Part shown: positions 3,166 through 49,501 of the stretch, piece after piece
Numbering within the stretch: position 1 is the first letter of the stretch
Layout: every line of letters begins with the position of its first letter
Assembly: GCF_964213995.1 (NCBI RefSeq)
Contig: NC_135819.1
Location: 50,096,001 to 50,160,000 of the forward strand
Source of the DNA: Mustelus asterias
Taxonomy: Eukaryota
Direction: 5' to 3'
DNA length: 64,000 nt
Translations under genes and position numbers: made by a program
Notes under the pieces: generated by a model
Seen by the model: the letters and a program-made list of their open reading frames with translations, nothing else
The model's database searches: none
Told to the model about the DNA's origin: nothing

Positions 3166-3892
3166 ATTGGAGATTGTCATTGACTTCAGGAAGCGTAAAG
3201 GAGAACATGCCCCTGTCTACATCAATGGGGCCGAAGTAGAAAGGGTCGAGAGCTTCAAGTTTTTAGGTGTCCAGATCACCAACAACCTGTCCTGGTCCCC
3301 CCATGCTGACACTATAGTTAAGAAAGCCCACCAATGCCTCTACTTTCTCAGACGACTAAGGAAATTTGGTATGTCAGCTACGACTCTCACCAACTTTTAG
3401 AGATGCACCATAGAAAGCATTCTTTCTGGTTGTATCACAGTTTGGTATGGCTCCTGCTCTGCCCAAGACCGTAAGGAACTACAAAAGGATGTGAATGTAG
3501 CCCAAGGATCACGCAAACCAGCCTCCCATCCATTGCCTCTGTCTGCACTTCCCGCTGCCTCAGCAAAGCAGCCAGCATAATTAAGGACTCCACGCACCCT
3601 GGACATTCTCTCTTCCACCTTCTTCCTTCGGGAAAAAGATACAAAAGTCCGAGGTCACATACCAACCAACTCAAGAACAACTTCTTCCCTGCTGCTGTCA
3701 GACTTTTGAATGGACTTACCTTACATTAAGTTGATGTTTCTTGTCACCCCAGCTATGACTGTAACACTACATTCTGCACTCTCTTGTTTCCTTCTCTATA
3801 AATGGTATGTTTTGTCTGTATAGCGCGCAAGAAACAATACTTTTCATTGTATGTTAATACATATGACAATAATAAATCAAATTAATTCAAAT
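3166..3892 (+). mobile_element. Rex1/Babar LINE, 5'-truncated
   Basis: RT C-terminus EIVIDFRK...VESFKFLGVQITNNLSW...KKAHQCLYFLRRLRKF, then 3' UTR and aataaatcaa tail. Confidence 0.88.
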
Positions 3893-4242
3893 AACAGAAA
3901 TGCAGGATTAGCCATTGAGTCGCTACTTTTCCAGTATTCAAAATGGGTATTCTGGTCTGGAATAAGATTTTGAAGAATTTTTAAATGTTAGTCAGATCCC
4001 AGATTCTGCTTTGTTCACTAGATGTTCATTATTGTCCATCTTGCTCCTACGTTTTATGTCACAGAGACAGTAATTATTAGGATTGCCTTTAGGTTTACAG
4101 CCATTTTTCATCAGCTGCAGAGCAAACATCAGAATTCAAGCCATGATCCTCTCGGTGAACACTTTCCTGATCACCATCAGATTTAGGAAATGGTGGGAGC
4201 ACCTAACATGCCTGTATGTAGGGATGGAGGAAAGGGAGCAAC

Positions 4243-4575
4243 TAGAATCATTGAATAGAATCCCCACAGTGCAGAAGAAGGCCATTCGGCCCATCAAGTC
4301 TGCACCGGGTCTCTGAAACAATATCTGACCAAGGCCCACCTGGCGAACTATCTCCATAACCTCACACATTTACCCTGCTTATCCCTCTACTCAGCACATC
4401 TTGGGACACCAAGGGGCAACTTAGCATGGCCAATCCACCTAACACACATATCTTTGGAGTGTGGATGGAAACTGGAGCACTGGGAAGAAATCCACATAGA
4501 CACAGGAAGAACGCGCAAATTCCACACAGACAGTCACCCAAGCTGGGAATCGGAGAGACAGCAGTGCTAACCATC
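4243..4575 (-). mobile_element. HE1/V-type SINE
   Basis: Reverse complement of the V-core and CR1-type tail (tagaatccccacagtgcagaagaaggccattcggcc). Confidence 0.8.
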
Positions 4576-5604
4576 ACAGTTAACTTTTTATATTGCTATT
4601 CTGTGATAGCAGTTAAAAGAATGGCCCATTGGCTGAAGTACTGGAGCACTTTTGATGCAAAACCCCATCACTGCTCATTGCCTGCAGGAAGAGTAGGAGT
4701 GATGAGAAACTGGAGGAAACATGGCAATCTTTTCATCTAAAGAAGCTGTGATCTTTGCAAAACTATCGTCGAATTAACAAACCAGGGCTCTGCAGAAGAA
4801 GCTGCAGGAAGTTACAAGAGGATGTTTCGATATTGATTTTCTCATATTTATTTAATGGGGGCTGCTTTAACTTGCAAACGACTTGTTAGGGAACCACGGA
4901 GAAAATGCTTTTCGGAAATGACACGACTGCTGCTTTTGCCCTTTCTTCGTGTTCTTTACACAATGAACAATTCTGGATTCTGAAATTTTGAAAGCACAAT
5001 TGCTGGTTTTAGAAACTACGCCAGATCACAATGTAAACGCATTGAAATTGTTAACTGCCAAGATGTCAATGAAATTATGCTATAAGCATTGTGACACAAG
5101 GAAATGTGCGGTACCTGTTCAAGTGATGAATAGTTCTTGTAATATGACTAAGCCATTCTCCAAATAGAAAGTCAAATATTCTAATGCGTGCTGTTCCTTT
5201 GTATTCAGCGTGTGAAATTTACACTCCAGTTCATTCAGGCTTCTTCCTCCATGGCCTTAGTTACTTAAATGTCATGTTCTTTTTCTGTCTTATTTTTTTA
5301 CTCTGCTGTACATAATCTAACCTTTTCTTGAGTAGCAAATCTAATCTTGAAGAAAGGATTTTCTCCGAGTTCTGAACAGGAACATTTTTAGAGACCAATT
5401 TCACAGTCAGTGAGAAGGCTACTTTTGAAAAGTTGAGCAAGCTGCAGCACTGATGAAATAAGGGTTATCTATAATAGCCATGTTCTGGCTTAGAAAAAAA
5501 TTCAGTCTGACATTACCCACATGGACAACTTTGGTAGGTTAACCCTATTAACTTAGAAACTCATATTTACAACAAAACTTCATTTTCTAGATATAGGTGT
5601 TACT

Positions 5605-6320
5605 TGCATTTATTGCTGGTTGTCCTTCAAGGTGATGGTGTAGTGGTTCCTTCTTTAATCACTGCAGTGCATGCGGTGAAGATATTTTCATTACACTGTT
5701 AGGTGCAGGGTTTCCAGGATTTTGACTGAGTAACGATGATGGAAAGGTGATGTATCTTCCAGGTTGGGTGCTGCCGGATATGTTGGGAGCTTAGAGATCA
5801 TGGCATTCCCCTCTAGGTAATGGAAGTCCTTGGTTTGAAAGCTGCTGTTCCAGAAGCCGTGGTGAGTTACTGAAGTACAACTGTAGATTGGCATTGAAGC
5901 TGGTGCACCAATGATGGATGAAGTAGTAGTTTAAGATGGTGGATGGGCTGCTAATCAAGTGGACTACTTTGCCCTGAATGGTGTTGAGCTTCTAGGGTGT
6001 CGTACCAACTGGAATTCCAATATCCAGGCAAGAGTCAAGTGTATACTTAAGGCTGAGATAGATACATTTTTGATCAGTAAGGGAATCAAAGATTACGGGG
6101 AAAGGGCAGGAAAATGGATGTGAGGAATGTTGTTGGATCAGGTATGATCCTCTTGCATGGAGGAACAGGCTTGAGGGGCCAGATGGCCTACTCCTGTTCC
6201 TATTTCTTACTGTCTTCTGGTCTAAATATTCCATCACACTCCTGACTTGTGTCAAAGAGGCTTTGGAGAGTTTAAAGGTCGGGCCGCACTGCAGATTATC
6301 CAGATTTTGTTGACACAGGA
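5605..6320 (-). mobile_element. Old LINE 3' fragment (partner of the tRNA-headed SINE), split by a CR1 tail at about 6036-6217
   Basis: gcatttattgc...caaggtgatggtg...ctgcag matches the extended 3' end of the SINE at 59791-60202; degraded RT-end coding on the minus strand. Confidence 0.55.
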
Positions 6321-6748
6321 ATATATTTATTTGTTCACTCTCCCCAAATAGATGTTAATCCTATTCAGCCACATCTCTGAGACAGAAAAAAAGACTTGGT
6401 GTTGGTTGTCATGGAAATGCAGACAAACATGATGAAATGCATTAGAGCAAAAGCATACTTTGTCCATTAGCTGACAATTGCCCCAGAGATGTGTGAACTG
6501 TGCTTAGCAATATGTCGTTCTACAAAATTTAATCAAAAATGTTTCAAAAGTTTTTTCCAGTTCCATATTTTAAAATGAAAATTAGGTTGAGAATTGCATT
6601 TATTTATAATTTTAGGTATTTTTCTAAAGTTGAAAATTGAATTAAGGTGATTGTTGGTCATGATATTTGCATTTTAGGACACCTTAATCCAGGAACTGTA
6701 CTTCAATAGAAATCAACTTTGCTGTAATAGTGTGGATTGTGGATTGAA

Positions 6749-6969
6749 TTTTTTTTATTTTTTAACTCCATCCTTAAAGTTACAAAGTCAATGCTCAGAA
6801 TGGACCGGGCAAATCCAAATTCATTGCTTGCTTGCTCCATAAACCAAATTAAAATTCCAATTGAATCCAATTCATGGTTCCCCAGAGAGACAAACAAGAT
6901 CCTAGCTGACAAGATAACCACACTTGGGCTTGATCTGTTGCTTGATCTTAGCCAAAAGGGCGACAAGAT
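6749..6969 (-). ncRNA. U2 snRNA-derived element (diverged U2 retrocopy or SINEU-like) with A-rich tail
   Basis: 19-nt exact U2 match CCTTTTGGCTAAGATCAAG (6941-6959, minus); collinear similarity to the U2 middle and 3' stem region (tttgcccggtccattctgagcattgactttgta vs CTTGCTCCGTCCACTCCACGCATCGACCTGGTA); tail aaaaaataaaaaaaa. Confidence 0.75.
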
Positions 6970-7224
6970 CATAATTTAAACTTAGCAGTCGTCCTTGTGT
7001 CAGAGTGTAGCTGTGTAGTACAATAGCTTTGTCCCCAGCTAGGTGAAAGGTATTGGGATAGTGAAATTAGACACTAGTCACACTACAGGCAGCCTGTGTC
7101 AGTGTCAACAAGTTTCATTCCAGGTAGGGGATCAGTTAGATGTAGACTAGAGTAAAATCATCTTCACTTTGCAACATCAATGGAGTTAAAATTCTTGTCT
7201 TTATTAATTATAGCAAAAAAAAAC

Positions 7225-7385
7225 AGTCTTTAAAAAGTACCTGGATGAGTACCTGGCACGTCATAACATTCAAGGCTATGGGCCAATTGCTGGTAAGTGG
7301 GATTAGGCGGGAGTTCAGGTGTACCTCGCATGCTGGTGCAGACTCGATGGGCTGAAGGGCCTCTTCTGCACTGTATAATCCTGTC
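7225..7385 (+). mobile_element. CR1 LINE 3' end fragment
   Basis: tttaaaaagtacctggatgag...ggctatgggccaa...ggtgcagactcgatgggctgaagggcctcttctgcactgta. Confidence 0.75.
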
Positions 7386-7664
7386 ATTCGAAGTAAAATG
7401 TAATATTTCTTCTTTTGTTTTACTGGCATTTCTCTCTCACCGCCCCCCCACCCCAAATATACTTTATAACATTTGTGAAAGTACATCACAAGACGTTTCA
7501 ACTTGAAAATTGCAAAAAATCAAGAACCATCCAACAGGATCTGCCATCTCCTTTTCCCATAGGGGCTGTGGGACATTATGTGCAGACGATTGCCTGATGG
7601 ACTTGGGGGTCATCTGTTTTTCCCCTAATTAACAAAGGCAGAATTCTCAGTATCAACCTCAACT

Positions 7665-7956
7665 TAAAGTTGAAGTTAAAGTTTATTTATTAGTGTCACA
7701 AATAGGCTTACATTATCACTGCAATGAAGCTACTGTGAAAATCCCCTAGTCGCCACACTCCGGTGCCTGTTTGGGTACAGTGAGGGAGAATTTAGCAGGG
7801 CTAATGCACCTAACCAGCAAAGCTTTTGGACTGTGGGAGGAAACCCACGCAGACATGGAGAAAAGTGCAGACTCAGCATAGACAGTGACCCAAGCTGGGA
7901 ATTGAACCCGGATCCCTGGCGCTGAGAGGCAGCAGTGCTCACCACTATGCAACCAT
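7665..7956 (-). mobile_element. V-type SINE with alternative tail (tail B)
   Basis: Same head and V-core as the HE1 copies, but the 3' part is aacaggcaccggagtgtggcgactaggggattttcacag...tgtgacactaataaataaactt. Confidence 0.8.
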
Positions 7957-8619
7957 GCTCAAGTCAAGCCACCATTATATTTCATCCGAGTTGGGTTGGG
8001 TGACAAACTGGTACAGAATTGTTCTCTGTGATGCCCTGCTCAATTGAAAATGAGTTGAGAAAGCCTAAACTCATTGTATATTGAACTGTTACAGCCTTTA
8101 ACCCTTCCTGTCTATTCTGGATTTCAGTCCAGAGGGTAAAGGGACTTGTACCCAGTTTTGTACTTTGTGTGCCATTTCCACTCAATTGCCAGTATTTCCG
8201 CTACAGTTTGTACTTGTAATAATACAGGGAACAGAGTGAGGCACTGGGTTCTCCAGCCATTTACATCAAGTCTTCTATTCCACTTTTCACTTTGACAGTC
8301 TAATTCCTTAGCAGTTGATTGCGAGAGAGATTGTGCAGCCTCTATTAATGCAGTGCCTGAGGTACAAAGGTATTATGCATTGGGATATTTTGTGTGTGCA
8401 ATTCAGATGTTGCAGCATATAATAGAGCAACACTGAGGTTTACGGCTTTGATCACCAACCTATAGTATGCCACCATTAAATGAGCAGAAAGTCAGACTGA
8501 TGAACACAGGCAGCATCTCCATTGGATTCCAACAAGAGTTCTAAAGGCGCTTGATTATGTCCCACTAGTCTGAATTTGCCAAGAGAATATACATCCAATG
8601 TCAAATAATACATGGAACT

Positions 8620-9520
8620 CCATCCCGCAATGCTTGTAGACCTAAACAGCCAAGCAAAATTAGAATAAGCAGAATAAAAGAGAAATCATTCACCATCTGG
8701 GAGTGAACTACAACAGAGTTCTTTACGAAATAGATGTGCTATGCCCTGGAGTGTTGAGAGATATGATCAAATAGAAAACTTCAACATATGAACCTCCTTG
8801 AACTCTCAAACATCGAACTCTGCAACTGCACAATCCAGGTCCATGGGATTGTGATGTAATTATTAGCTGCCCAGTGAAACAGCTGGCTACAAATGGATAC
8901 CATTCCAGGAACACTAGTACCCAATTGTCTTCAGAACCTGTTGCTGGAAAGGGATTACAGAATTAGCCCCAAAGCCTGCATGAGAATGAACTTCATATCC
9001 TTACATCAGCAAGTTGTTAAATTCCACCTCATCCGTTACCTGATTCATTACTTTCCCCAGAATCCAGTAATAAATCATAGGCAGCAGTGTGAGCTGACCT
9101 CCCTCCCACTCCCTCATTTCCTTTGCTGCAAAAAAAAATGCCTCCTCAGACGCATCTCCATTCTGTGCACTATACTCACCTCTATACCAATGGAGCACTT
9201 GGATAATCTGAAAAGACCCTGTGAATAAGAATTAAGTGCTATTGAAGAGGCATAGCAAGAAGTCTGAAGAAAGGACTTCAGCAATATCATCTACAGCTAA
9301 CCATCCAAAAACTAATTAAAGATTGTGCACCACATATTGCCTTCCAATGAAAGCCCATACAAATCACCCCTCTATATCAAAATACTGTTGGGGAGTTACT
9401 AACTATCGGGCTCCAAACGAATATTCTGGAAATATGTACTCTCATCCATTTTGGATAGCTGTCCATGAGACCACAAGGACTATGTTTAGAATGGTGCCAG
9501 TATTGTGCTGGCTGAGCATA
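8620..9520 (+). mobile_element. Highly decayed RNase H-bearing LINE (I/Nimb/Ingi group) remnant
   Basis: Motifs in the expected order across frameshifts: HLGVNYNRVL (YLGV.FD..L), LQNLLL..IT, YTHLYTNG (YTDGS), ELSAIEEA, IIYS, FWIAVH (WIPSH). Confidence 0.45.
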
Positions 9521-9587
9521 TTCACTGGAGGGGGCAGGATCTCAAAAGTATGTAGATTAACACTCTTGGTATATGATCTCAAACTTT

Positions 9588-10058
9588 TGTGTTCTTTCTT
9601 CTGACAGAAGAAGGTGGAAAAGAGTATGTCTGGAATGTGTGGGGTCCTTGATTATGCAGGCTGCTTTTCCGAGGCAGCAGGAAACGTAGACAGAGTCAAT
9701 GGATGGAAAGCTGGTTTGCGTGACAGACTGGGCTACGTTCACAACTCTTTATAATTTCTTGCAGTCTTGGGTAGAGCAGGAGCCATACCAAGCTGTGATA
9801 CAACCAGAAATGATGCTTTCTATGGTGCATCTGTAAAAGTTGGTGGAAGTCGTAGTGGACATGCCGAATTTCCTTAGCCTCCTGACAAAATAGAGGCATT
9901 GGTGGGTTTTCTTAACTATAGCGTCGGCTTGGAGTGATCAGAACAGGTTGTTAGATGTCTAGAAACTTGAAGCTCTCGTTCATTTCCACTTCATCCCTGT
10001 CGATGTAGACAGCCGCATGTCCTGTTTACGCTTCCTGAAGACTATCTCCTTCATTTCA
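9588..10058 (-). mobile_element. Rex1/Babar LINE internal fragment
   Basis: Minus-strand VAQSVTQTSFPSIDSVY...IIKDPTH; homologous to 3166-3892. Confidence 0.8.
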
Positions 10059-29056: not shown

Positions 29057-30410
29057 CATGGTCAAGCCATGGTTTACCAGGCTGATTCCTGGAATGGCAA
29101 GTTTTGATTTGATTTCTTATTGTCACATGGATTAGTACACAATGAAAAGTATTGTTTCTTGTGCGCTATACAGACAAAGCATACCGTTCATAGAGAAGGA
29201 GAGAGTGCAGAATGTAGTGTTACAGTCATAGCTAGGGTGTAGAGAACGATCAACTTAATGCAAGGTAGGTCCATTCAAAAGTCTGACAGCAGGAGGGAAG
29301 AAGCTGTTCTTGAGTCAGTTGGTACGTGACCTCAGACTTTTGTATCTTTTTCCCGACAAAAGAAGGTGGAAGAGAGAATGTCCGGGGTGCGTGGGGTCCT
29401 TAATTATGCTGACTGCTTTGCTGAGGCAGCGGGAAGTGTAGACAGGGTCAATTGATGGGAGGCTGGTTTGCGTGATGGATTGGGCTACATTCACAACCTT
29501 TTGTAGTTCCTTGCGGTCTTGGGCAGAGTAAGAGCCATACCAAGCTGTGCTACAACCAGAAAGAATGCTTTCTATGGTGCATCTGTAAAGGTTGTTGAGA
29601 GTCGTAGCTGACATGCCAAAGTTCCTTAATCTTCTGAGAAAGTAGAGGCGTTGGTGGGCTTTCTTAACGGCTTGCTTAACTATAGTGTTGGCATGGGGGG
29701 ACCAGGACACGTTGTTGGTGATCTGGTCACCTAAAACTTGAAGCTCTCGACCCTTTCTACTTCGTCCCCATTGATGTAGAAAGGGACATGTTCTCCTTTA
29801 CGCTTCCTGAAGTCGATGACAATCTCCATCGTTTTGTTGAAATTGAGAGAGAGATTATTGTTGCCACACCAATTCACCAGATTCTCTATCTCATTCCTGT
29901 ACTCTGTCTCGTCATTGTTTGAGATCCAACCCACTATGGTGGTGTCGTCAGCAAACTTGAAAATCTGTGATATGAGGAGAGACTAACTTGGTTAGGATTA
30001 TATTCGCTGAAGTTTAGAAGAGTGAGAGGGGATCGCATAAGAACTTATAAAATTCTGACAGGGTAGATTCAGAAAGAATGTTCCTGATGGCGCGCAAGTA
30101 AAGAACTAGGAGTCATATTTTGGGGATAAGGAGCAAATGTTTTAGGACTGAGGTGGGGAGAAATTTTTTGACCCAGAGGGTAGTGAATGCGTAGAATTAC
30201 CTACCAGAGAATGTAGTTATTGCTAAAATGTTGCGTGATTTCAAGAAGGAATTAGATATAGCTCTTCGGGCTAAAGGGATCAAGGGATTATGGGGGGAAG
30301 GTGGGATCAGGATATTGAATTTGATGATCAGGCATGATCAAAATGAATGGCGGAGCAGACTCGAAGGGCCGAATGGCCTACACCTGCTTCTATTTTCTAT
30401 GTTTCTATGA
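29057..30410 (+). mobile_element. CR1 LINE 3' fragment (split by Rex1/Babar)
   Basis: ggtttaccaggctgattcctggaatggcaagt|ctgtgatatgaggaga rejoins across the insert; ends ttctatgtttctatga. Confidence 0.85.
29102..29964 (-). mobile_element. Rex1/Babar LINE, 5'-truncated
   Basis: KFADD at the 5' break, ORFs 29731-29934 and 29315-29710, tail tttgatttgatt. Confidence 0.9.
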
Positions 30411-38112: not shown

Positions 38113-38366
38113 TCTGTTTCACAATGATCGGAAGAGCCGACATTGAAGGATCAAAAAGTGTCGTCGCTATGAACACTTGGCCGTCACAAGCCAGTTATCC
38201 CTGTGGCAACTTTTCTGACACCTCCTGCTTAAAACCCAGAAGATCAGAAGGATCGTGAAGCCCAGCTTTCACAGTCTGTATTTGTACTGAAAATCAAGAT
38301 CAAGTGAGCTTTAGCCCTTCTGCTCCATGGGAGGTTTCTGTCCTCTCTGAGCTCGCCTTAGGACAC
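38113..38366 (-). pseudogene. 28S rRNA fragment (domain V region), pseudogene
   Basis: Reverse complement matches vertebrate 28S (cacaatgat.ggaagagccgacat.gaaggatcaaaaag...ccagttatccctgtgg.aacttttctgacacctc...gagctcgccttaggacac) with many CpG-decay substitutions. Confidence 0.92.
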
Positions 38367-38370
38367 GTTA

Positions 38371-38690
38371 GGGCGGCACGATGGCACAGTGGTTAGCACT
38401 GCTGCCTCACAGCGCCAGGGACCTGGGTTCAATTCCCGGCTTGGGTCATTGTGTGAAGTTTGCACATTCTCCCCATGTCTGCGTGGGTTTCCTTTGGGTG
38501 CTCTGGTTTCCTCCCACAGTCCAAAGATATGCGGGTTAGGTTGATTGAACATGCTAAAATTGCCACTCCGTGTCAGGGGGACTAAATATGTGAGGTTTTG
38601 GGGATAGGGGCTAGGTGGGATTGTGGTCGGTGCAGACCCAATGGGCCAAATGGCCTCCTTCTGCACTGTGGGGATTCTATGATTCTGTGA
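38371..38690 (+). mobile_element. HE1/V-type SINE
   Basis: Complete head, V-core and CR1-type tail. Confidence 0.9.
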
Positions 38691-47904: not shown

Positions 47905-49450
47905 CATCCCCCTTGTGGATGAATCTGTATCTGGGGTCACCACTGCAGATGATAAAGCAGCTTTCTTGAAGGTCAACCCACGGAAAGCAACTGGCCCGGA
48001 TGGGGTACCCGGACGTGCACTCAGATCCTGTGTGGATCAGCTGGCGGAGGTATTCACAGACATCTTCAACCTCTCTTTACAACAATCTGAGGTCCCTTTC
48101 TGCTTCAAGAAGACAACCATCGTCCCGGTAGCTAAGAAAAACCAAGCAGCGTGCCTTAATGACTATTGGCCGATGGCTCTGACATCCATCATTATGAAGT
48201 GCTTCGAAAGGTTAATCATGGCACAAATCAATTCCAGCCTCCCGGACTACCTGGATCCAGTACAGTTCGCCTTCCGCCGCAACAAGCCATTTCCCTGGCC
48301 CTGCACTCAACCTTGGAACACCTAGATAACAAGGACACCTATGTCAGACTCCTATTTATTGACTACAGCTCAGCCTTCAACACCATTATTCCCACAAAAC
48401 TCATCCCCAAACTCCGTGGCCTGGGCCTTGGCACCTCCCTCTGTGACTTCCTAACTCACAGACCACAATCAGTAAGGATAGGCAACAACACCTCCATGAT
48501 CATCCTCAACACCGGTACCCCACAAGGCTGTGTTCTCAGCCCCCTACTATACTTCTTATACACCTATGACTGTGTGGCCAAATTTCCCTCCAATTCGATT
48601 TTCAAGTTTGCTGATGACACCACCATAATGGATCGGATCTCAAACAATGACGAGACAGAATACAGGAATGAGATAGAGAATCTGGTGAACTGGTGTGGCA
48701 ACAATGATCTCTCCCTCAATGTCAACAAAATGAAGGAAATTGTCATTGACTTCAGGAAGCGTAAAGTAGAACATGCCTGTCTGCATCCATTGGGATGAAG
48801 TAGAAAGGGACGAGAGCTTCAAATGTTTAGGTATCCAGATCACCAACAACCTGTCCTGGTCCCCTCATGCTGACACTATAGTTAAGAAAGCCCACCAACG
48901 CCTCTACTTTCTCAAAAGACGAAGGAAATTTGGCATGTCAGCTACAACTCTCACCAACTTTTACAGATGCACCATAGAAAGCATTCTTTCTGGTTGTATC
49001 ACAGCTTGGTATGGCTCCTGCTCTGCCCAAGACCGCAAGGAACTACAAAAGGTGGTGAATGTAGCCCAATCCATCATGCAAACCAGCCTTCCATCCATTG
49101 ACTGTCTACACTTCCCGCTGCCTCGGCAAAGCAGCCAGCATAATTAAGGACCCCACGCACCCCGGACATTCTCTCTTCCACTTTCTTCCTTTGGGGAAAA
49201 AGATACAAAAGTCTGAGGTCACGTACTAACCGACTCAAGAACAGCTTCTTCTCTGCTGCTGTCAGACTTTTGAATAGACTTACTTTGCATTAAGTTGATC
49301 TTTCTCTACACCCTAGCTATGACTGTAACACTACACTCTGCACTCTCTCGTTTCCTTCTCTATGAATGGTATGTTTTATCTGTTTAGCATGCAGGAAATA
49401 ATAATTTTCACTATGTTAATACATGACAATAATAAATCAAATCAAATCAA
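47905..49450 (+). mobile_element. Rex1/Babar LINE, 5'-truncated, RT frameshifted
   Basis: [51 protein letters not shown]; tail (aatca)n; flanked by agtc on both sides. Confidence 0.93.
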
Positions 49451-49501
49451 AGTCGAGGACCAGAGGGCATAATCTCAGAGTAATGGGTTGCCTATTTAAG
49501 A

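Follow-up and report, generated by a model that had tools for sequence, protein, structure and literature searches.

SINEs headed by snRNA sequences, termed SINEU, have been reported solely from crocodilians, and the account given by Kojima 2015 (PMC4494074) leaves their transcription open. U2 is also a target of retrotransposons, Keno and Utopia inserting at U2 nt 39 according to the description in PMC4640811. No report of snRNA-headed SINEs in sharks was found in the literature that lies outside subscription journals, Repbase Reports and Dfam. Here we analyze an insertion at positions 6749..6969 (minus strand) of a 64,000-nt stretch of Mustelus asterias DNA, referred to as the window, together with the dispersed family A to which it belongs and the related families B and C.

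When compared by description with the published account of SINEU (PMC4494074), family A works like the crocodilian elements. It has a U2 head, is shorter than 500 bp, is non-coding, ends in a poly-A tail and occurs as dispersed copies of shared structure with TSDs and 5' truncation. As to a Tx1 partner, the 5' end of such a LINE is shared with A and its nt 38 insertion site with B, and only 3/150 A tails lie at that site, a number indistinguishable from background. As described in PMC4494074, SINEU-3 resembles A in being a nearly all-U2 monomer with a structural change in all copies, a poly-A tail, tandem insertions, no evident internal promoter and an inferred Tx1 partner. However, SINEU-3 is an internally deleted U2, whereas A comprises nearly the whole of U2 plus two insertions, and SINEU-3 inserts into Mariner-N4_AMi, while family A shows no such target. 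SINEU-1 and SINEU-2 of the same account recall A, C and B in the repeated addition of 5' U1/U2 pieces to an older core and in partial duplications. Family C has a U4 piece, which the parts of PMC4494074 drawn on here do not describe for SINEU-1 and SINEU-2, and in contrast to these elements, whose transcription that paper leaves open, the present genome contains one copy joined to a U2 promoter.

Keno, Tx1-11_Crp and Utopia, as portrayed in PMC4494074 and PMC4640811, share with a LINE found here the AP-type endonuclease, the U2 head and a tail at U2 nt 38/39. Family B uses the same site as Keno/Utopia (PMC4640811); family A differs from these retrotransposons in being non-coding, 220 nt long and mostly located outside U2 genes. 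Conventional U2 retrocopies, tailless or with poly-A, are likewise reverse-transcribed U2 with TSDs, but in the account of PMC4494074 they are independent copies of normal U2, whereas A copies share insertions and a divergence of about 25%. R2 in rDNA is likewise promoter-less and is co-transcribed with the multicopy RNA gene it enters (outlined in PMC4494074), a dependence that would apply to A and B as well. It differs in target gene, polymerase and enzyme, and most copies in the present genome are dispersed. Short non-autonomous derivatives of R2 exist in rDNA.

The U2-like insertion in the window

Rfam U2 is not matched by the window copy, with no hit at E ≤ 1 in positions 5000-9000 around it and none at the gathering score in the whole window, and comparisons were therefore made against U2 genes of the same genome. 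With one of these (L031), the longest exact match comprises 19 nt, window positions 6959-6941 corresponding to U2 nt 13-31. The features of the copy, in the order of its own 5' to 3' direction, are as follows:

6941..6969, minus strand: U2-derived head (U2 nt 1-31, stem-loop I) with the exact 19-nt match
6918..6940, minus strand: insertion 1, family-wide, 24 nt in the majority, partly repeating U2 nt 24-31 and predicted to supply the 5' arm of a newly formed hairpin
6897..6917, minus strand: U2 nt ~41-63 in remodelled form (region of stem IIa), which in intact copies is predicted to supply the 3' arm of that hairpin
6877..6891, minus strand: equivalent of stem-loop IIb, with pairing preserved and letters altered in U2, A and B; the window copy lacks 2 bases
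6851..6868, minus strand: insertion 2, family-wide, 18 nt, AT-rich; predicted small hairpin
6836..6845, minus strand: Sm-site equivalent, with G in the family versus A in the genome's own U2 before the U-run, which is broken here
6796..6827, minus strand: equivalent of stem-loop III; predicted fold in the majority -20.2 kcal/mol versus -15.1 in U2
6765..6795, minus strand: eroded stem-loop IV region; U2 fold lost (-4.2 versus -16.5)
6749..6764, minus strand: A-rich tail; the family pattern is A-run, short T-run, A-run

The minus-strand sequence of 6969-6749 reads as the original prediction had described it, and the 19-nt match, the A-rich tail (6764-6749) and the lack of a TSD, searched for at 6749-6969, are confirmed. 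Its claim of collinearity with the whole of U2 also stands. The family A majority agrees with U2 at 130/173 aligned bases, and beyond the head, against U2 nt 32-191, the local score is 106 for the majority (shuffles: mean 47, SD 6.0, maximum 76) and 86 for the window copy, above each of 1000 dinucleotide shuffles (mean 45, SD 5.8, maximum 79). A halt of the U2 alignment at the first 30 nt, which the prediction had named as a point against itself, is thereby contradicted. The proposed alignment of the branch-point region, on the other hand, proved to be an artefact, namely the junction left by a 10-base loss private to the window copy. The central hairpin lacks one family base at 6923/6922 and nine at 6918/6917, and the U2-homologous bases of the branch-point region lie further 3' in family A, in the loop and the 3' arm of the new hairpin.

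Leaving gaps aside, the window copy is 93.6% identical to the family A majority. Its predicted fold is no better than that of shuffled sequences (z = +0.9 versus -3.8 for the majority and -4.0 for U2). Upstream of it, the best similarity to the stretch at -62..-43 of the U2 gene is 10/20, which is the background level. A variant U2 gene at this locus, the second possibility raised by the original prediction in the form of a divergent snRNA, is not supported, because TSD, promoter match and predicted fold are all absent, and the interrupted U-run of the Sm-like site likewise speaks against it. Contigs from two of four other sequencing runs span both junctions of the insertion under a 31-base bridging rule, with ~2-7% different letters; a third run falls one base short at the 5' junction and the fourth provides flanks only, and neither was counted. 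The bridging contigs show the insertion to be old and shared. In itself, the window copy represents an ordinary decayed insertion.

Further repeats occur in the window. A LINE 3' part is present in four copies, 79-90% alike (3168-3891, 9566-10056, 29104-29828 and 48728-49451), a SINE of ~300 bp has many copies across the window, and a large-subunit rRNA fragment (38222-38388, minus strand; Rfam RF02543, 120 bits) adjoins a copy of an abundant SINE.

Copies and anatomy of family A

A first look at the genome (3.68 Gb) yielded 3417-4789 candidates for family A, and all 40 that were scored proved to be dispersed near-full-length copies. In the alignment, the copies agree in carrying the two insertions, in their differences from U2 and in ending with an A/T tail, and their flanks are unrelated. 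An A-specific 22-mer gave 396 exact hits genome-wide versus none for a control. The sample studied consisted of 90 of these hits, taken from 100 listed among the 396, and contained 80 copies of A, 4 of C and 6 interrupted or truncated ones. The 80 A copies are on average 90.8% identical to the majority. Corrected for decay (retention 4/30; 0.908 per base), the 22-mer points to roughly 2,600-4,500 copies; a census of U2 heads (5462 exact heads, A-type in 6/30, head retained in 14/90) gives about 7,000 with a wide error.

The element is 219 nt long plus the A/T tail. TSDs of at least 10 bp were found for 11/80 copies, compared with 0.4% of shuffled pairs, and were not seen in the other 69. The 5' ends of 35/80 copies fall within U2 nt 1-8 and the remainder are 5'-truncated. 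A-tails, TSDs and 5' truncation are the marks of LINE-driven retroposition. The genome search for copies with the same insertions, A-tails and TSDs, put forward in the original prediction, thus returned them in thousands and bears out its reading as a U2-derived retroposon family instead of one decayed pseudogene. Its Rfam check (RF00004) was answered in part: it is negative at the window copy, and better-kept copies reach 31-45 bits (best other A-type copy 44.9), still below the cut-off of 46. The missing Rfam match and TSD at the window copy would suit a U2 pseudogene standing alone, or similarity by chance past the first 30 bases. The thousands of copies that agree in the two insertions and in their diverged letters exclude the isolated pseudogene and contradict the single copy without shared insertions that the prediction had allowed for; together with the score above all shuffles past the head, they reduce the probability of either explanation to next to nothing.

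With regard to layout, the majority sequence opens with the U2 head, its first 30 nt being those of U2 (30/30); 24 inserted nt separate the head from U2 nt 31-92, and another 18 separate these from the U2 part that resumes at nt 93. The bases of insertion 1 are predicted to pair with the U2-derived ones that follow, and the long hairpin formed in this way takes the place of the branch-point sequence and of stem IIa. Of the features of functional U2, the branch-point-pairing sequence and stem IIa are thus replaced and refolded. In the predicted folds of family A stems I, IIb and III persist, and stem IV does not. Most copies retain the Sm-site U-run, with a G in front of it in place of the A of U2 (most frequent form, 50/101). 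The U2-type 5' arm of stem III is kept in 6/98 copies, which represent an older state. Since A copies share the insertions as well as a divergence from U2 of about 25%, they stem from a changed source.

Apart from neighbouring repeats, the 63 near-full A copies have no upstream flank or 5' extension in common, nor was any promoter similarity detected upstream of them. Diagnostic sites are mixed among copies, as if these came from several sources. No cluster of identical copies was seen, the best match to a near-majority copy being 94%. A same-strand relative lies within 120 nt of 7/80 copies, immediately 5' and of family B in four of the seven, and none lies on the other strand, a pattern that speaks for homing to U2 heads. 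Family A is present in sequencing runs labelled as at least seven organisms, and no RNA run appears among the runs listed as containing it. Contigs of three runs guessed as RNA contain A-like pieces, several of them within contigs of 1.9-3.7 kb, and no stand-alone RNA of family A was found in these contigs. An Rfam match to mir-365, above the cut-off, lies at L233:2095-2174, ~370 bases from an old A-type copy.

A search for a LINE carrying the 3' domain of A fetched 30 of 40 scored hits, all of them A copies. Rfam tRNA, 5S and SRP models find no match in A copies, and the head is that of U2 including its T-run. A T-run inside the head argues against Pol III transcription. A classical Pol III SINE was accordingly rejected, the head coming from U2 with its T-run and no Pol III gene being matched.

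Families B and C, U2 arrays and a Tx1 LINE

The loci relevant to the relatives of family A are these:

L085-L114, L205-L232: family B, young and with strong predicted folding (z -8.0)
L257-L286: family C, e.g. L184:1286-1550
L306, L307, L308, L313, L315, L317 (3), L318 (1): nine U2 genes with normal promoter and duplications of head bases replacing nt ~38-49
L319:351-870, 3891-4358 (G000:C24:43,060,350-43,064,357): a single U2 gene that nt 38 insertions have entered three times
L051:2510-8157: Keno-like Tx1 LINE, amplified with an 8035-bp U2 array unit

Family B is ~325 nt long and its best copies are 98-99% alike. It accounts for 23 of 30 sampled U2-head hits, and TSDs were found for 27/83 copies. 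The element has two U2 heads and two copies of the hairpin and stem IIb of A, and often occurs in same-strand tandem runs of several subfamilies with repeated target sequence between them. In a young B copy the 10-bp upper stem is paired at 10/10 positions in both hairpins, with four and one double changes relative to A; in an older copy the stems are paired at 9/10 and 9/9 positions. Double changes with pairing kept in the predicted stems of this one young copy suggest that the fold was under selection in the source lineage.

In family C (~270 nt), U1 nt 1-61 and a partial repeat are combined with a U4 piece, which agrees with the genome's U4 at 26/26 positions, and with A nt 7-145. The middle piece of B matches the 5' part of C with a score of 45.5 (shuffle maximum 33.5). 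A direct origin of this piece from U4 or U1 was rejected, the scores being 28 and 21 versus shuffle maxima of 40.5 and 32. From structure and the higher identity of B copies we infer the order A, then C, then B. Sampled C copies are 87% identical and, by identity, not younger than those of A.

At least 48 U2 genes of the genome's own were identified, all on contig C24 among the matches listed. The motif taken from the U2 upstream region occurs 58 times, exclusively in two arrays on C24, and is followed by normal U2 in 48 cases, by a head-duplicated U2 in nine and by a B variant in one; an A copy lies behind none of the 58. The duplications in the nine genes are situated at the nt 38 cut site and resemble the first insertion of A. 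They are possibly repair scars or expressed U2 variants.

The single B variant resides in L319, where an intact U2 promoter is followed by a B sequence whose first base is exactly +1 and whose end lies on U2 nt 38-53 (351-841). The three insertions in this gene are the promoter-fused variant, a Tx1 truncated at its 5' end and another B copy, which leads into U2 nt 38-191. Besides the fused copy, three B tails at two loci continue into U2 nt 38 onward. Judged from its position in the sequence, a B copy behind a U2 promoter would likely explain how such promoter-less elements are transcribed. The fused copy carries a deletion present in no other fetched copy and is therefore not shown to be a source. 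Note that promoter capture was seen for family B only and not for family A.

The LINE in the 8035-bp U2 array unit contains a zinc-knuckle ORF1 along with AP-type endonuclease, RT and zf-RVT pieces. Its reading frames are broken and a tRNA-type SINE sits within ORF2; the RT match stays below the Pfam cut-off because of the broken frame. The tail is followed by U2 nt 38-191, i.e., it lies at the Keno/Utopia site, and the LINE carries its own U2 head, at dispersed sites too. A nt 5-50 match the LINE 5' end at 87%. Beyond the shared U2 bases, 14/19 bases of insertion 1 agree with it, an agreement that could also result if one stretch of U2 had been duplicated independently in each. At the 3' side there is no common body, merely a loosely similar A/T tail. 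An internally deleted Tx1 was rejected as an explanation for family A, since only nt 5-50 are LINE-like and the 3' body is derived from U2. According to the folds predicted for A, for B and for the head of the LINE, the U2 bases that follow stem I are tied up in pairing or have been replaced. The Tx1 copies observed belong to a young family (95-100%) and family A is older, so that the actual partner of A would be an older relative; of older Tx1 relatives only fragments were seen.

Three further occurrences of Tx1 sequence are recorded. A 75-bp fragment, 80% like Tx1 ORF2, lies at window positions 7524-7598 (minus strand), ~550 bases upstream of the window copy and on the same strand. A Tx1 copy resides among U4 genes on contig C1418 (L239; G000:C1418:81787-82026). 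At L322:3637-3910, a U1 head like that of C and a U2 head are joined to 5' and 3' Tx1 pieces in a short older element, possibly a non-autonomous Tx1.

Origin of the U2-built families

The window insertion is a decayed copy of a U2-built retroposon. We consider it probable that this family goes back to a scarred U2 gene transcribed from the U2 promoter and that a Keno-type Tx1 copied the RNA into new places. In favour are the Tx1 LINE of the U2 arrays with its U2 head and A-like 5' end, the B copies ending on U2 nt 38, the promoter-fused B copy and the head duplications in U2 genes. Repair of a cut at nt 38 would have left a duplication, and the resulting U2 gene would have lost the branch-point sequence but retained its promoter. 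The RNA of this gene would retain stems I, IIb and III and the U-run, acquire the long hairpin and become polyadenylated. Tx1 proteins would then reverse-transcribe it at mostly unrelated sites, where the promoter-less copies would decay. New sources could arise through rare re-insertion into U2 genes or through fresh snRNA 5' pieces, leading to C and B. Several observations weigh against this reading. The source gene of A was not found, as no A copy lies behind any of the U2 promoter motifs and no identical cluster was seen; A tails show no clear preference for the Keno site (3/150), 69/80 copies are devoid of a TSD of at least 10 bp, A and the LINE have no 3' body in common, and the promoter-fused B copy has no progeny among the copies fetched.

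Transcription could also proceed independently of a U2 promoter, by an internal promoter or by read-through from neighbouring genes or repeats, with snRNA heads added or refreshed via template switching in reverse transcription. Extra pieces of true U2 or U1 located 5' of single copies (L066, L183, L093, L168) are in line with such a process, as are the U1 and U4 pieces in family C and the dispersal of the young Tx1 together with its own U2 head. There is also the precedent of SINEU, for which flanking transcription and template switching are proposed in the account of Kojima 2015 (PMC4494074). We nevertheless regard this explanation as unlikely: the 63 near-full A copies lack a shared 5' extension, 5' ends cluster at U2 +1 to +8, a promoter-fused B copy exists, and the T-run in the head speaks against Pol III, an argument that also appears in PMC4494074.

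Still less credible, in our judgement, is a source in the form of a variant snRNA selected by the host for a job other than branch-point recognition, the dispersed copies being its processed pseudogenes. Such an RNA would account for the near-full U2 layout, for the survival of stems I, IIb and III and the U-run through many changes, and for the occurrence of family A in runs labelled as at least seven organisms. However, no conserved gene was found, neither among the 58 promoter motifs nor as an identical cluster, and the mixed diagnostic sites look as if several sources had contributed. Stem IV and the branch-point bases are gone. In B and C the core has been cut, duplicated and re-headed, behaviour that appears parasite-like and would be rare for host RNAs.

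The scarred U2 gene copied by Tx1 remains our preferred source. A wider picture can be sketched tentatively, and we hold it to be somewhat less probable than its opposite: U2 arrays may act as a nursery of snRNP-mimicking parasites. Family A would have arisen, independently of SINEU, from a Keno-scarred gene; its fold would have been selected and its splicing end neutralised, with fusion to U1 and U4 following later and the promoter being renewed by re-insertion. Family B may have been active recently or may still be so.

A single genome holds the whole series, i.e., normal U2, promoter-bearing scarred U2, family A, U1+U4+U2 composites, young B, a candidate partner LINE and a promoter fusion, and the promoter-capture model is therefore directly testable. 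Beyond this, insertions common to several species are usable as phylogenetic markers.
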